This document shows, piece by piece, positions 226 to 4,301 of a DNA stretch of 51,224 nt. The notes below the pieces were generated by a model. It did no database searches. It worked only from the letters and a program-made list of their open reading frames with translations, and had not been told where the DNA came from. The stretch lies in the sequence record MW584165.1; one strand, 5' to 3'. Position 1 is the stretch's first letter. Each line of letters opens with the position of its first letter. The stretch comes from Mycobacterium phage prophiGD17-1. A program made the translations under genes and the position numbers.

Positions 226-1548
226 CTAAAGTTCGCCGCCGATGGCCCTATGCACCGCATCGGCCGCAGCCGGATGGGCTCGCCCTCGTGCGAAATACAC
301 CCGCTGAGTCATCGCCGGATCGACGTGCCCAAGTACGTCGGCGGCAACCCTTGCTGATAGCCCTGCATCGTCAATGATGGTTGCTACAGCCTTGCGGAAG
401 CTGTGCGCGGTGATCTTCATGTGCAGGCCCAGCGCTGAACGTACGCGCCGCCACTGTGCGGCAACATTGTGCGGGTCACGCGGCGTCCAGCACTCGGACG
501 GAAACACCAAATCGGCGTACTCCGGCGCGATGGGCCCAGGGTAGAGAAGCTGGCGCTCCGCGAGCCGCTTTCGGCGTGCCTTCAACATCTCGACCGCGAA
601 CAGCGGCAACGCAATCTCGTTCTCGCTCGCCTTAGGGTCATCGTCAACATCGGCGAGCGCCAAACCGCCGCCCTTGATTCGTATCAGCTTCTTTGAGGGC
701 CGCAAAATGCCAGTTTCGAGGTCGATGTCCGGCCACCTGACGGCGAGTGATTGCGCTCTGCGGTGTGCAGTCGCGACAAGCATCACAACCCAATCGACAA
801 GGTCAACGCGTTCGGAAAACTCGGCGACCGTGGGCGGCGCGTATCGCTTCCGGTTTTTCTTCCGCTCGGCCAGCGACAGAATGGTTGGGCATGGCAGCTC
901 GGAGGTGCGGACGCTGACGAGGATGTGACACACCTCGTCCACCGTTAAATGCTTGGCGCCCCTTTGTTTTCCGCTCTTGCCCGGCGTCAGCTTCACCTCG
1001 CGCAACGGGTTGACGGTGATGGCACCGCCGCTCATCCGAATCGCATAGTTGTACATGCCGGAAAGCACGGTGCGCGATGACTTCGCCGAGTCCGGGCCGC
1101 GCGTCTCGGCGACCGTGGTCAAATACTTTTCCATGACCGGGGTGGGCGCCTCCAGAAGTCGGCGATACCCGAAGGCTGAATTGAAGCTCTTGGCTTCGGC
1201 GTCGTACCTGTCCAGCGTTCCCGACGCTCGCCCCTGACTGATCAAATACGGGCGGTAGTGGTCGAAATACAGTGACTTTATTGTTGTTTCGACTGACAGG
1301 TCAGCATCAAGGATTGACACTGACAGCTCGGAAGCGGCGACTAGCACCGCGTCGCGGGCGCGCGTGCCATCGCGGTCAGGGACAGTGCGCCCACGCGAGT
1401 CTGTCTTAGGTGGGCTGAACCGCATCACCTTTCGTGACTTTCCGCTGGCGTCGCGGACGCGGACAATGGCCCGCCATAAGCCGGGCTGCATCTCCTTCAG
1501 ATTGACCTTGCCTGGCACCCCAATGGGTCGTGGCGGTCTACCTCGCAT
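226..1548 (-). CDS. int: tyrosine integrase
   Basis: C-terminus has HSFRKAVAT...LGH...TQRVY, the catalytic H-x-x-R / H / Y motifs of tyrosine recombinases. Start chosen at the ATG at 1548 (MRGRPPRPIGV...) preceded by AGGAGA; the ORF is open back to 1617. Adjacent to attL. Confidence 0.85.
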   Translation of the reverse strand: MRGRPPRPIGVPGKVNLKEMQPGLWRAIVRVRDASGKSRKVMRFSPPKTDSRGRTVPDRDGTRARDAVLVAASELSVSILDADLSVETTIKSLYFDHYRPYLISQGRASGTLDRYDAEAKSFNSAFGYRRLLEAPTPVMEKYLTTVAETRGPDSAKSSRTVLSGMYNYAIRMSGGAITVNPLREVKLTPGKSGKQRGAKHLTVDEVCHILVSVRTSELPCPTILSLAERKKNRKRYAPPTVAEFSERVDLVDWVVMLVATAHRRAQSLAVRWPDIDLETGILRPSKKLIRIKGGGLALADVDDDPKASENEIALPLFAVEMLKARRKRLAERQLLYPGPIAPEYADLVFPSECWTPRDPHNVAAQWRRVRSALGLHMKITAHSFRKAVATIIDDAGLSARVAADVLGHVDPAMTQRVYFARGRAHPAAADAVHRAIGGEL

Positions 1549-1558
1549 GTCGGGTCTC

Positions 1559-2014
1559 CTACCGCTGAAACAATGACAAGTGCTCGATGACAAAGCCGAT
1601 CGCCGAAATGGTTGCACCGCCCATGGTCATGGCAATGTCGCGCACTTCGAAACGCCTATTGAGGTCATCTCGTCCGGCTTGGTGGGACTCAATGGCGTCA
1701 TCAATCGTTGGGCGGATGCCCGCCTTCAAGTCCTCTAGTGCATCCTCAACATTCTCAAGTCGTTTCGCAGGGTCATTTGAGGTGACCTTCACGCGCGGCG
1801 TGCCTCCAATGAGTTCCGGCCTGGCGGGCAGCGGACTTACCGTCTTGTCACCACAGCGGCTGGCAAGGATCGTGCGCAGCCATGCCAGAAGCTGATCAAA
1901 CACCTTGCGGCACTTATCAAGTATCCCTAAAGCTCGATTCAGGGCATCGAGCGAACCCGCGAGGGTGATCGCTATGCCAAGTATTTGAAGCCAGAAACCC
2001 GAAGCCGCCGCCAT
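1559..2014 (-). CDS. hypothetical membrane protein in the lysogeny operon (candidate prophage-expressed exclusion or defence protein)
   Basis: 151 aa with an N-terminal hydrophobic helix (FWLQILGIAITLAGSL) and a C-terminal hydrophobic segment. TAAATG junction with the upstream DUF3263 gene. Confidence 0.5.
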   Translation of the reverse strand: MAAASGFWLQILGIAITLAGSLDALNRALGILDKCRKVFDQLLAWLRTILASRCGDKTVSPLPARPELIGGTPRVKVTSNDPAKRLENVEDALEDLKAGIRPTIDDAIESHQAGRDDLNRRFEVRDIAMTMGGATISAIGFVIEHLSLFQR

Positions 2015-2212
2015 TTACATCCCCCTTATCCGCCGCAGCCGGTTGACGGTCTGTGCGTCGATGGCCAGCGCCTCTGGTGTCTCGATGATGGCGTTCAACT
2101 TCTGGTAGTAGCGGACCGGCGATAGGCCGAAACGCTCGCGTATTGCTTCGTCCTTGGCGCCGGATGCAGGCCACCAAATACGCTCCATAGCAAGGGCTTC
2201 AACAGTGTTCAT
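2015..2212 (-). CDS. DUF3263-family small protein
   Basis: 65 aa ...ERIWWPASGAKDEAIRERFGLSPVRYYQKLNAIIETPEALAIDAQTVNRLRRIR matches the conserved actinobacterial DUF3263 pattern (WW..AG.KE.AIRE.FG.S..RYYQ.LNALID.PEAL..DP..V.RLRR). ATGA overlap with the upstream ImmA gene. Confidence 0.55.
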   Translation of the reverse strand: MNTVEALAMERIWWPASGAKDEAIRERFGLSPVRYYQKLNAIIETPEALAIDAQTVNRLRRIRGM

Positions 2213-2757
2213 GGGCGTTGCGGGTCTTCAACACGGTCAGCGAGCCAGTCGCGCTCAGTAGGGGTTAGGGTCTGGCGTCGCACCCGCACGGTGTGAACGT
2301 CGGTCCAAAGCTCTTCGGCCAGTTCGTAATCATCGTTGGTCCATTGCAGCCCACGCAGCAGAGCGGGTAGCGGGATGAGTCGGCGTGCCGCCAGCACATC
2401 CACGTAGTGCTCTTCGCGGGCGCGGTGGATGACGGGCGCGATGCCTCGGTCAACGTGGATCAACTCATGCGTCAAGGTCGAGCGGCGCTCAGCCTGTGTG
2501 AGGCTCTTGCACAGCCAGATGGTGTTGCCCTTGATCAGTCCGGCCACTCCCCGGGGCAGGACGTGATCGCAGGAAACAGCGATGTGTGGATAGTGCTCGG
2601 CGAGCGTTCGCCATGGATGCCAATGGTTCGTGATCATGGTGCGAGACGCTAGAACAGGCCACCGACAAATACGGCGCTGACCAGGAACTACAGCGCTGTC
2701 ATTCCGAGAACGGGCAGCTCGGAGGGGCCGCTTACTCGTCGTCGTCGCGTTCGCCAT
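2209..2757 (-). CDS. ImmA/IrrE-family zinc metallopeptidase (HEXXH)
   Basis: HELIH motif (THELIHVDRG) downstream of an HTH regulator in the same orientation, a classic ImmR-ImmA layout. Start uncertain: ATG 2757 chosen; the ORF is open to TTG 2802, and ATG 2637 is an alternative. Confidence 0.6.
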   Translation of the reverse strand: MANATTTSKRPLRAARSRNDSAVVPGQRRICRWPVLASRTMITNHWHPWRTLAEHYPHIAVSCDHVLPRGVAGLIKGNTIWLCKSLTQAERRSTLTHELIHVDRGIAPVIHRAREEHYVDVLAARRLIPLPALLRGLQWTNDDYELAEELWTDVHTVRVRRQTLTPTERDWLADRVEDPQRP

Positions 2758-3499
2758 CGGACTGCTTTTCACGCCGCGACGCCGCCACGTCAAGGTCGTC
2801 AATGTCTGGCGGCGGTGGCACCGGCCTACGACGGTCGGCGAGGGAGGTGACTCCAGGCGGCGGTGATTCGTCGGCTTGCCGAGTTTCGCCCGATCTGATG
2901 GGCGGCTTGGCGACCTCAGCGAGCAAGGGGGCGAAGAGCTTTACAACCTCGTCGGCATTGTCGGCATAAGAGGTGGCGATCATCTTGACGATTTCGTCAT
3001 TAAGGAATGACCGTAGTTCCATGTTCCCGGCCATTGCGTTGGCTTTCACGGCCTCCACCTCATCCTCCGACGGGAAGTTGGCGTTGCCGCGCGGCCTTAG
3101 TCGTTCGACCATTTCATTGATGGCGAGGGTGTTGCCTTCCATCACTCTGATGTGCCGGATGATGTCCGAAAATGATTCGGCGACAGCCTCAATTGGTACG
3201 CCCGCCTTGAGGCTGGGGTGCGTGCGGTTCGGTCTCTGATCGGCCGGGGCGGTCTCCAAAAGGATTGGCTCGCCCCCCGCGAGGGTGATGTCAATTGAGC
3301 CGGGCTCCCAGAGCAGTACATCTTCGATCGCCGCCTTCGTGCTCCCTGAGAAGTTTGTGCGGCGCCCGCCCTCCAGGTCGCTGACGAGGCGGGGGGTCAC
3401 GTGTGCTCGATCGGCCAGCGCTTTCGCGGTGTGTATGCGGAGTTGAGCCCGACGAAGCCGGACACGATGCCCTAGCCGCTCGGCGTTGGTCTCACTCAC
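2732..3499 (-). CDS. XRE-family HTH transcriptional repressor (ImmR / CI-like) with a long C-terminal domain
   Basis: N-terminal HTH (LRRAQLRIHTAKALADRAHVTPRLVSDLEGG). GTG start at 3499 preceded by GAGGGGA. Divergent from the cro-like gene; acidic C-terminal tail. Confidence 0.75.
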   Translation of the reverse strand: MSETNAERLGHRVRLRRAQLRIHTAKALADRAHVTPRLVSDLEGGRRTNFSGSTKAAIEDVLLWEPGSIDITLAGGEPILLETAPADQRPNRTHPSLKAGVPIEAVAESFSDIIRHIRVMEGNTLAINEMVERLRPRGNANFPSEDEVEAVKANAMAGNMELRSFLNDEIVKMIATSYADNADEVVKLFAPLLAEVAKPPIRSGETRQADESPPPGVTSLADRRRPVPPPPDIDDLDVAASRREKQSDGERDDDE

Positions 3500-3640
3500 G
3501 GGGTTCCCCTCAGTATCAAATGAAAAGCTCAGGAAAGGTTTCAGCTAGCAATCATTGTAGCTACCTGCGCAAATCCATGCTATAGAATTTTTTCTGGTTC
3601 CAGGCTTGTTGTTTCCGGTTCGTTTCTATATCGTGGTCGC
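3500..3640. promoter_or_regulatory. divergent immunity switch region (repressor and cro promoters with candidate operators)
   Basis: AT-rich 140 bp in a 64% GC genome. Imperfect palindrome AGCTAGCAATCATTGTAGCTA (about 3545-3565); direct repeats GGTTCC / GTTTCCGGTTCGTTTC (about 3597-3625); TATATC -10-like element 9 nt before ATG 3641, suggesting a leaderless cro mRNA. Confidence 0.55.
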
Positions 3641-3877
3641 ATGGTGATCGAAGACCCAGCCCGCATGGGCGCCACGATTCAAGCGCTCCGCGAGGCCTAT
3701 GGCTGGCGGTCCGTCAACCTCGCGCGGGAGCTGGGTATCAGCCACCCGTACTTGTCGAACATCGAGGCCGGTCGCCGACGCTGCACCCCCGATTTGGCGC
3801 GCAAGATTGCCACCGTGCTCGGTGTCCCGCTGGCCGCAATCACCACCGACTACAGCGTCACGGAGATTGGCGCATGA
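3641..3877 (+). CDS. Cro-like XRE-family HTH regulator
   Basis: 78 aa with HTH (WRSVNLARELGISHPYLSNIEAGRR). Divergent from the repressor; probably leaderless. Confidence 0.7.
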   Translation: MVIEDPARMGATIQALREAYGWRSVNLARELGISHPYLSNIEAGRRRCTPDLARKIATVLGVPLAAITTDYSVTEIGA

Positions 3878-4230
3878 CCGCGACTCTTCAGGAACTCGCC
3901 GCCCAGGCGGGCATGACCGCCGATAGCTCGCCGGTCGAAATGGCGCGCATTGCAACAACTATCGCCGATACCGGCCTCACTCCCCTCTCGGCCCATGAAA
4001 CGCTCCGCGCCTTGCTCCGCATTCAGCGAGAGGCGAAAGCGCCGGTGTTCGTCACGACCAGTGTTGGCGCTGAAATCCTGGGCATTCATCCCGAAACGCT
4101 CCGCTACTGGAACCGTCGCGGACTCTATGACCTTCCGGCGCCTACTCGCGCCGGTAGTCAGCTTCGGTGGGACGCCACCGAGCTACGCGCATGGGCCGAG
4201 CGCCGGAAGCAGCGCCCGACCGCTTCATAA
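3874..4230 (+). CDS. excisionase-family / MerR-like HTH DNA-binding protein (candidate Xis)
   Basis: ATGA overlap with cro. C-terminal FVTTSVGAEILGIHPETLRYWNRRGLYDLPAP...WDATELRAWAE resembles the Xis/HTH_17 fold. Confidence 0.55.
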   Translation: MTATLQELAAQAGMTADSSPVEMARIATTIADTGLTPLSAHETLRALLRIQREAKAPVFVTTSVGAEILGIHPETLRYWNRRGLYDLPAPTRAGSQLRWDATELRAWAERRKQRPTAS

Positions 4231-4260
4231 TCCCAACTCTCACAACTGAATAACCCCCAA

Positions 4261-4301
4261 CGCTGACGGCGGTCTACTCGCCAAAGTCCCCGCCGTCAGC
4301 G
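4261..4301 (+). terminator. GC-rich hairpin: perfect 12-bp inverted repeat CGCTGACGGCGG...CCGCCGTCAGCG with a 17-nt loop
   Basis: Seen directly. Lies between the xis-like gene and the next gene's RBS (AGGAGG). It has the form of an intrinsic terminator or attenuator; no U-tract, as is common in mycobacteria. Confidence 0.5.

Follow-up and report, generated by a model that had tools for sequence, protein, structure and literature searches.

A predicted DNA-damage-responsive induction and excision operon in the lysogeny module of Mycobacterium phage prophiGD17-1

The left part of Mycobacterium phage prophiGD17-1 (sequence record MW584165.1; 51,224 nucleotides, analyzed as a whole and referred to below as the window) carries five consecutive genes on the minus strand, which encode an XRE-type repressor, a small HEXXH protease, a DUF3263 protein, the product of a 151-aa open reading frame (ORF), and an integrase. 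Comparative analysis of this region leads us to propose, with slightly better than even confidence, that positions 226-2668 of the minus strand constitute a self-contained induction and excision operon responsive to the host DNA-damage regulator PafBC. The prophage belongs to cluster MabD of M. abscessus prophages and resides at attB-3, a tRNA-overlapping site (PMC8092301). Its lytic form, phiGD17-1, is released spontaneously from strain GD17 (PMC8092298), and the lysogeny module is therefore functional. The gene order given in the initial annotation, including the end of the gene cluster 10 nt before the integrase, agrees with the ORFs and with the family matches described below.

Most genes of the region are tightly packed. 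The start codon of DUF3263 overlaps the stop codon of the protease gene (ATGA), the ATG of the 151-aa ORF directly abuts the DUF3263 TAA and has an upstream Shine-Dalgarno sequence AAGGGGGA, and the integrase ATG at position 1548 follows the 151-aa stop by 10 nt with AGGAG located 8 nt before it. The earlier claim that all junctions overlap or abut holds for the protease/DUF3263 and DUF3263/151-aa pairs but fails for the repressor and protease genes, which are separated by a 94-nt gap between the repressor stop and the protease ATG at 2637. This start was chosen because the upstream candidate TTG at 2802 opens a frame that carries a stop codon in the related Mycobacterium phage prophiGD05-1, all three substitutions between 2757 and 2637 with respect to prophiGD05-1 are non-synonymous in the frame of ATG 2757 (the repressor-overlapping start used initially), all protease homologues begin at the W-H/N-P-W-R motif that follows ATG 2637, and the annotators of prophiGD05-1 selected the equivalent codon.

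The gap consists of conserved promoter DNA. At positions 2646-2668 of the minus strand it contains a perfect match to the consensus of the PafBC-type (recA P1; LexA/RecA-independent) DNA-damage promoter, TTGTCGGTG-GCCTGTTC-TAGCGT, with the core TGTCGG-N10-TAGCGT and a -10 element that ends 8 nt before ATG 2637. The published consensus of the RecA-independent promoter RecA-NDp is tTGTCRgtg-8nt-TAnnnT (PMC5656591), and the PafBC motif defined by ChIP-seq is tGTCgg(N10)tA(N3)T, in which a -26 element is combined with a SigA -10 element and no -35 element is present (PMC8635444). The pattern TGTCRGTG-N8-TANNNT has a single perfect match in the window, which is the one in front of the protease gene.

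Conservation of this promoter extends far beyond the closest relatives of the window. Eight Mycobacteroides loci have in common the ~65 nt that precede the protease gene, regardless of the allele of the upstream repressor, and the promoter block is recognizable in phages Sbash, Che9c, Xavia, TripleJ and BaxterFox and in prophages prophiGD20-1 and prophiGD43A-1 (GD20-1 and GD43A-1 below), whose proteases have identities of only 27-51% to that of the window. The distance between the motif and the start codon is the same in Sbash, Che9c, Xavia, GD20-1 and GD43A-1, and in BaxterFox and TripleJ the motif is found immediately upstream of the protease gene. Altogether, the motif occupies this place in 26 of 33 distinct protease loci from phages of Mycobacterium, Gordonia and Arthrobacter, compared with a background of 0.03 per kb and a chance expectation of about 0.005 per locus, and one-mismatch variants are located at the same place in six of the seven remaining loci. 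In 21 of the 26 motif-containing loci, the end of the -10 element and the start codon are 7-8 nt apart; in the others the element lies 4, 10, 17 or 65 nt from the aligned domain start. This fixed spacing, together with the lack of a Shine-Dalgarno sequence before ATG 2637, implies that the protease mRNA is probably leaderless.

A generic scan of the minus strand for sigma-70 promoters and terminators returned nothing relevant, and no terminator-like site was identified between the repressor and protease genes. An RNA element in this gap was also considered and rejected, as its folding is no better than that of shuffled sequences (z = 0.33) and the Rfam search is empty. By the evidence of this conserved PafBC-type promoter, the four genes downstream appear not to be simply the tail of the repressor operon. 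Their description as a constitutive extension of that operon should be revised accordingly, and expression induced by DNA damage seems at least as likely as constitutive expression in the lysogen. A full-text literature search for PafBC in combination with prophages retrieved no paper joining the two in actinobacteria.

Upstream of the promoter, a second conserved block (positions 2675-2704, about -38 to -67 of the promoter) comprises the dyad GAAyrACA-N4-TGTrrTTC (2685-2704) and the sequence TTCCTGGTCA, and represents a candidate operator. The dyad pattern has its sole perfect match in the window at this site. The block is conserved in the eight loci that carry different repressor alleles, and it is also recognizable in Sbash, Xavia, GD43A-1, GD20-1, and loci L148 and L045. 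Because the dyad is invariant with respect to the repressor allele, its ligand is more likely to be a host factor or one of the conserved products that the operon encodes. Two other assignments were rejected: an operator of the repressor, since a second copy is absent from the switch region between the divergent repressor and cro-like genes, and a LexA box, whose GAAC-N4-GTTC core fits neither the half-sites nor the spacing of the dyad.

The first gene of the operon (2209-2637, minus strand) encodes a 142-aa zinc metallopeptidase of the M78 (ImmA/IrrE-like) family with a helical C-terminal part. The zinc site is formed by HELIH at residues 57-61 and by a downstream glutamate, E76; residues H57, E58, H61 and E76 are invariant in an alignment of nine family members from three host genera. 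The protein matches PHROG 87 'metallo-protease' (1.7e-18), and the Pfam profile Peptidase_M78 (PF06114) is matched by all nine aligned members, with the best value of 1.8e-8. Together with the invariant H, E, H, E residues, these matches place the window protease in M78 at the level of the family. Relatives in the Protein Data Bank (PDB) were limited to a weak match with a minigluzincin (E = 0.026). Homologues occur in 259 phage records, many of them annotated as 'IrrE-like protein' or 'metalloprotease', and the Sbash homologue gp42 has been noted as IrrE-like (PMC6426596). The C-terminal ~50 residues of the protease (2209-2370) resemble a helix-turn-helix (HTH), and 'helix-turn-helix DNA binding protein' is the annotation that several records give; the protease could itself contact DNA, with the 2685-2704 dyad as a conceivable site. 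As a separate observation, in Microcystis phage MinS1 (MZ923504; locus L008) a DUF3263 gene and a protease of the same family occur together with two integrases and a sequence close to the PafBC-type motif. MinS1 was reported from a cyanobacterium, and this gene content is odd for a non-actinobacterial host, so that the host assignment may be doubtful.

The presumed target of the protease is the XRE-type immunity repressor (2732-3499, minus strand), a 255-aa protein that extends from GTG 3499 to TAA 2732 and contains an HTH_31 domain at residues 8-54. HTH_31 was the only Pfam domain detected, and there was no S24 peptidase domain. Lacking S24, the protein is not a self-cleaving repressor of the CI/LexA type, and it is linked to an M78 zinc peptidase, in agreement with the initial annotation, which did not regard it as a stand-alone CI protein. 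Its identity to the protein annotated as 'immunity repressor' in prophiGD05-1 is 97%, and it has the HTH and a W-E/A-P-G-S region in common with Sbash gp43, for which immunity was demonstrated experimentally (PMC6426596).

Outside the HTH, the repressors of this group are mostly unrelated to each other, with the exception of a short C-terminal motif, D-(Y/L)-x-(L/V/I)-A-(A/N), which has R, S or Q as the next residue and is located 9-40 residues from the C-terminus. In the window repressor the motif is D-L-D-V-A-A (residues 235-240, positions 2780-2797 of the minus strand), after which a 15-residue charged tail remains. The corresponding segments are DDLDVAASRREKQSDGERDDDE in prophiGD17-1, DMLDLAARRVENDDKPE in Sbash gp43, DDLGIAART... 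in Che9c gp46, DDLGVAAQK... in Xavia gp39, GDYGLAARR... in GD20-1 gp10, DDYRLAARE... in TripleJ gp41 and SDYELANRRGRGRTKGEQ in BaxterFox gp43, and the motif is also present in several metagenomic loci. Its background frequency is 0.024 per 1000 aa. We infer that this motif is a candidate cleavage site of the protease. The proposal of ImmA-type repressor cleavage made in the initial annotation is thereby partly supported, by the M78 family membership and by this shared motif as a possible site. The sequence of the motif is similar to that of the ssrA tag of mycobacteria, AADSHQRDYALAA, and, more speculatively, cleavage after A-A might unmask a degron for ClpXP.

Two kinds of variation at the repressor C-terminus were observed. 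Some alleles contain 100-200 additional residues after DVAAS-RREKQSD (L002 3441-4655, L168 2987-3898, L176 1138-2463 and L180 1398-3014), and these extra domains include repeated '...GYGVRIRK...' units; if the tail motif is the cleavage site, the extra domains would leave the DNA-binding part. The Gordonia-type repressors of loci L019, L023, L033 and L177 have in common a basic tail segment after A-A, RRGRGKTKGEQLRDRD, whose degree of conservation would be sufficient for a function of its own, possibly similar to that of an AT-hook.

The DUF3263 gene (2015-2212, minus strand) encodes a 65-aa protein with a strong match to Pfam PF11662 (8.6e-25; 86.8 bits at a gathering cut-off of 22.3). A phmmer search of the PDB identified 9n2g_U and 9n2n_U (7e-18, 56% identity over a 60-residue core), and the AlphaFold2 model, which has five helices and a pLDDT of 91, gave as its top Foldseek match 9n2n, the M. 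tuberculosis NapA protein bound to AT-rich DNA (TM 0.65). The NCBIfam profile of NapA (NF053843) is matched at E 4e-22 over positions 39-98 of 113, with 78 bits compared with the 160-bit equivalog cut-off. By these matches the phage protein is a predicted small DNA-binding protein that shares the NapA domain and is not a NapA orthologue, and DUF3263 can no longer be considered a true domain of unknown function.

By tblastn, the DUF3263 protein is found in 137 phage records (Gordonia, Mycobacterium, Arthrobacter). A metalloprotease-DUF3263-integrase order with overlapping stop and start codons was observed in Sbash, Che9c, Gordonia phage BaxterFox and Arthrobacter phage TripleJ, none of which has the 151-aa gene. 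In Xavia, GD20-1 and GD43A-1, the overlap of the protease and DUF3263 genes is kept despite additional genes between this pair and the repressor or an inverted integrase gene, and in GD20-1 and GD43A-1 the coupling persists with the integrase gene inverted or ~1 kb distant. The protease ORF ends 0-9 nt upstream of DUF3263 in 16 of 19 IMG/VR loci, on contigs retrieved with a degenerate DUF3263 DNA pattern. Since the coupling with the protease also exists in phages of Mycobacterium, Gordonia and Arthrobacter without the membrane protein gene, DUF3263 is best described, on the basis of gene order, as a fixed, translationally coupled partner of the protease and not as accessory cargo. The original pairing of DUF3263 with the membrane protein as cargo is set aside on these grounds and by the homology to NapA. 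DUF3263 genes are also found on chromosomes: about 75 such genes of Streptomyces and Kitasatospora have neither a protease nor an integrase gene nearby. These chromosomal proteins (L046-L165) have a V-N-R-L-R-R-I-R C-terminal helix in common with the phage proteins, and the stand-alone genes, which are widespread, may have given rise to the phage gene or may derive from it.

In contrast to these core components, the 151-aa gene (1559-2014, minus strand), the product of which is predicted to span the membrane twice and to be helical in its central region, is lineage-specific and highly polymorphic. It has no family match in Pfam, PHROG, NCBIfam or PADLOC, and the PADLOC search with the four operon proteins gave 0 matches at E <= 0.1. 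An ORFan status was rejected: a word-indexed search detected one cluster, whereas an exhaustive HMMER search followed by a profile search detected ~20 clusters of proteins of 135-172 aa with 27-40% identity, almost entirely from Mycobacteroides. Among 50,697 phage records, the gene was found in prophiGD05-1 only. Searches of the family against PHROG and Pfam returned sub-threshold coiled-coil, XhlA and SLATT noise only, and a relationship to Sbash gp31 was rejected (hhalign probability 0.2%).

The members of this family have hydrophobic termini and a hydrophilic helical middle. Nearly all of the 18 members analyzed have two terminal helices with Kyte-Doolittle maxima above 1.6 (1.7-2.2 and 1.65-2.0 in the family), and the window allele has the weakest maxima, 1.68 at the N-terminus and 1.38 at the C-terminus. 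The earlier designation as a membrane protein is thus clear for the family and weak for the window allele. Residues G6, G13, G20, G133, S137, G140 and E144 are invariant, and the conserved Gly/Ser faces with a buried Glu suggest tight helix packing. The AlphaFold2 model was rejected as a source of fold information (pLDDT 51).

A member of the family is located exactly between DUF3263 and the integrase gene in all contexts examined, whether the locus was reached through the membrane gene itself or through DUF3263. The single exception is a decayed copy (L174 2900-4560), in which the last 22 codons of DUF3263 and the first 12 codons of the integrase gene are left, and the 172-aa membrane protein gene is intact beside a TNT polymorphic-toxin cassette; this suggests that the gene is kept for the benefit of the host. 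In prophiGD12-2, DUF3263 is present at 95% identity and a GepA-like toxin/antitoxin occupies the slot of the membrane gene. As anticipated for a variable gene in the integrase-proximal slot, the 151-aa gene is only ~30% identical to its counterparts where the flanking genes are 83-99% identical. Its synonymous divergence (dS) is saturated with respect to relatives in which the dS of the protease and DUF3263 genes is 0.1-0.2, with dN/dS of 0.18-0.47. Rapid positive selection was rejected as the source of this divergence, as saturated dS points to allele replacement; the alleles are old, evolve under purifying selection and have been swapped through recombination. The 151-aa gene alone has the character of a lineage-specific, swappable add-on of the operon. 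A defence role is possible for its product, and it would most plausibly act at the level of the envelope against other phages, which is the least certain part of the model. Envelope exclusion or defence would fit because of the allele diversity and the retention of the gene after prophage decay, and a damage-induced role in host manipulation would fit because of the promoter.

These observations can be combined in the following model. In the lysogen, the operon would be expressed at a low level from basal promoter activity, from read-through of the repressor gene, or from both. Single-stranded DNA formed upon DNA damage would activate the host PafBC, which would adapt the RNA polymerase-SigA complex to the -26 element and give rise to a leaderless transcript. 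The accumulating protease would then inactivate the XRE repressor, most likely by a cut at the C-terminal D-(Y/L)-x-(L/V)-A-A motif, and the loss of the repressor would derepress the rightward operon of cro, xis and other early genes, with the integrase supplied by the same damage-induced transcript. In a more speculative step, a cut after A-A would remove the acidic tail and expose an ssrA-like ...LAA/VAA end, directing the repressor to ClpXP. The DUF3263 protein would be the core DNA-binding partner of the protease, most likely targeting the dyad upstream of its own promoter and thus acting as an autoregulator, and the membrane protein would be a Mycobacteroides-specific addition with alleles shuffled by recombination.

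Several observations weigh against this model. Its main tension comes from Sbash, in which genes 40-43 are transcribed in an uninduced lysogen (PMC6426596): according to these RNA-seq data the protease would already be present without induction, and a threshold or an additional control must therefore be assumed. With Peptidase_M78, the protease of the window by itself reaches 15 bits (E = 0.022), below the cut-off of 22 bits. Repressor alleles L175, L179 and L180 have no recognizable tail motif, the motif could serve another purpose, and in relatives the repressor gene is often parted from the protease gene by other genes. Most of the counted loci were found through DUF3263, which makes the protease-DUF3263 linkage partly an ascertainment effect. 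Finally, the distance from the -10 element to the start codon in TripleJ is 11 nt and not 7-8 nt, and the PafBC motif is reported not to be conserved in Streptomyces venezuelae.

Alternative explanations differ mostly in the role that they assign to DUF3263 and to the promoter. The one to which we give the most credit, while still considering it doubtful, is that the protease acts on DUF3263 in a variant of the XRE/COG2856 module: DUF3263 would be cleaved by the protease or would restrain it, and would serve as the local repressor of the operon, with the CI-like repressor inactivated in some other way. The coupling of protease and DUF3263, which is far stricter than the adjacency of protease and repressor, and the invariance of the upstream dyad with the repressor allele both speak for this explanation, and COG2856 proteins can act without cleavage, as Rir/Crh do. 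However, DUF3263 contains no motif resembling the repressor tail, and the conservation of that motif in repressors across the protease-bearing group would be hard to explain if they were not targets; in addition, this explanation is compatible with the PafBC model. DUF3263 might instead be an architectural or directionality cofactor of the integrase, similar to Xis or integration host factor (IHF). The gene directly precedes the integrase gene, often with an overlap, in Sbash, Che9c, Xavia, BaxterFox and TripleJ, it also adjoins the integrases of MinS1, and NapA binds and bridges DNA with a preference for AT-rich sequences. This assignment is improbable given that the coupling to the protease survives inversion of the integrase gene or its displacement by ~1 kb (GD20-1, GD43A-1), that a separate HTH_17 excisionase exists, and that co-expression with the integrase in Sbash lysogens would mean constant excision if DUF3263 were a directionality factor. 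We consider it equally unlikely that DUF3263 and the membrane protein form a two-gene defence or exclusion cassette expressed constitutively in the lysogen from the tail of the repressor operon. The interval between repressor and integrase is a known site of prophage-expressed genes, DUF3263 directly precedes a membrane-family gene in every Mycobacteroides context examined, and read-through from the repressor gene is possible in view of the missing terminator. Against such a cassette, many phages without the membrane gene have DUF3263 coupled to the protease, prophiGD12-2 retains DUF3263 with a toxin/antitoxin in place of its supposed partner, the two genes follow separate evolutionary tracks (~30% identity for the membrane gene versus 83-98% for DUF3263), there is no PADLOC match, and a damage-type promoter stands in front.

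The promoter itself could be an ordinary SigA -10 element with fortuitous upstream bases, in which case the operon would be transcribed only by read-through from the repressor promoter, and control of the protease, like that of ImmA, would be post-translational. The expression of Sbash genes 40-43 as one lysogenic group and the lack of a predicted terminator between repressor and protease are in line with this proposal; the fixed position of the full 22-nt bipartite motif in three host genera, in front of proteases with 27-51% identity and far above the chance expectation per locus, renders it a poor explanation. For the 151-aa protein, the alternative to defence is a damage-induced factor of host manipulation, for instance an inhibitor of cell division acting at the onset of induction. 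The operon that contains the gene is preceded by a DNA-damage promoter, division inhibitors induced by damage are usually small membrane proteins, such as SidA, DidA, YneA and ChiZ, and prophages often encode division inhibitors. The deep allelic diversity and recombinational swapping would be unexpected for a protein directed at the conserved divisome, however, and the intact gene in the decayed module suggests a benefit for the host outside induction, so that this role is unlikely, if somewhat less so than the cassette.

A broader form of the PafBC model is put forward only tentatively, as a possibility that we would not call probable. A large group of temperate actinobacteriophages (at least 259 phage records with the protease) might be induced through PafBC independently of LexA/RecA, with the protease clipping the acidic tail of the repressor and unmasking an ssrA-like ...(Y/L)x(L/V)AA degron for ClpXP, with the integrase and a NapA-like co-factor provided by the same leaderless transcript, and with a hypervariable two-transmembrane protein recruited to the damage-induced operon in Mycobacteroides.

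The common core of attL is located at positions 4-39, at the left end of the integrated prophage, and this 36-nt sequence matches other M. abscessus prophage ends and the attP regions of Gordonia phages at 97-100%. Neither tRNA genes nor Rfam families were found in the window. The tyrosine integrase gene (226-1548, minus strand), the last of the operon, matches Pfam Phage_integrase (9e-12) and PHROG 1 (2e-31). Its product is only ~72% identical to those of relatives L001, L002 and L166, in which protease, DUF3263 and repressor are 92-99% identical; this divergence fits a swapped int/attP module (attB-3 versus attB-10). On the other side of the repressor gene, an AT-rich divergent switch region (3500-3640) separates it from a cro-like gene and holds the inverted repeat CCATGCTATAGAA / TTCTATATCGTGG (3575-3587 / 3624-3636), whose halves are candidate operators of the repressor. 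The rightward early genes (3641-4230, plus strand) are a cro-like HTH gene (3641-3877; HTH_3 / HTH_31 at 1e-13) and an excisionase gene (3874-4230; HTH_17 / MerR and PHROG 66 'excisionase'), and early genes are annotated as 'excise' in the prophiGD05-1 record. Overall, positions 302-4300 of the window have 88% identity to prophiGD05-1 and partial similarity to prophiGD12-2.

Little is understood of how prophages of mycobacteria and Gordonia, and those related to them, are induced: self-cleavage domains are missing from their repressors, and mycobacteria do not use the SOS system as their principal response to DNA damage. A PafBC-type promoter before an anti-repressor protease and an integrase would provide a concrete wiring from host damage sensing to prophage induction. 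Such wiring is relevant to phage therapy, as the prophages of M. abscessus shape its phage susceptibility and induced prophages are mined as therapeutic phages; quinolones and other DNA-damaging drugs would be predicted to mobilize these prophages. For genome annotation, DUF3263 genes beside 'IrrE-like' genes should be regarded as likely parts of a switch rather than as cargo, and the membrane proteins make up a new polymorphic family whose gene position is a hot spot of recombination in prophages of Mycobacteroides.

The proposed system resembles both ImmR/ImmA of the Bacillus subtilis element ICEBs1 and IrrE/DdrO of Deinococcus in the combination of an XRE repressor without S24 domain, a small HEXXH+E peptidase of the M78 family and, nearby, an integrase. 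IrrE cuts DdrO at L106/R107 with the removal of 23 C-terminal residues, and ImmA cuts ImmR at F95/M96 (PMC6868357). As in IrrE/DdrO, where a short C-terminal piece is removed by a cut before Arg, the prophage motif lies 9-40 residues from the end, and the residue after it is usually Arg, Ser or Gln. Unlike ImmA and IrrE, which are activated post-translationally, the prophage protease heads its own operon with a PafBC-type promoter, and its control is probably transcriptional; DUF3263 is a third fixed component that neither ImmR/ImmA nor IrrE/DdrO has, the repressor gene is not always adjacent, and cleavage is here predicted only. The promoter has the identical bipartite motif of the PafBC regulon and of recA P1 (RecA-NDp), tGTCgg-N10-tA-N3-T, with no -35 element and a spacing compatible with leaderless transcription, whereas the described PafBC targets are chromosomal DNA-repair genes and the prophage promoter is a predicted target. 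The DUF3263 protein has the fold of NapA (Rv0430; PDB 9N2G, 9N2N) and its S-P-V-R-Y-Y-Q and V-N-R-L-R-R segments, and differs from it in being a bare core (65 aa compared with ~113 aa in the NapA model) encoded in an operon of a mobile element and coupled to a protease. With the integration-dependent immunity of BPs-type phages and with the latent ClpX signals of LexA, the autocleavage of which exposes a VAA end recognized by ClpX, the prophage system shares a possible dependence of the repressor fate on an ssrA-like ...AA end; in the prophage repressors, unlike those cases, the AA does not stand at the terminus and would be masked by the 9-40 residues of a charged tail, and its exposure by a dedicated metalloprotease, instead of by integration or self-cleavage, is hypothetical. 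Finally, the 151-aa protein is comparable to Sbash gp30/gp31, RexB of phage lambda and Sie proteins: it is predicted to be a small membrane protein, its gene lies close to the attachment junction in a temperate actinophage, and it varies between relatives. It is distinguished from these exclusion and abortive proteins by being a single gene with no sensor partner, located behind a damage-type promoter.

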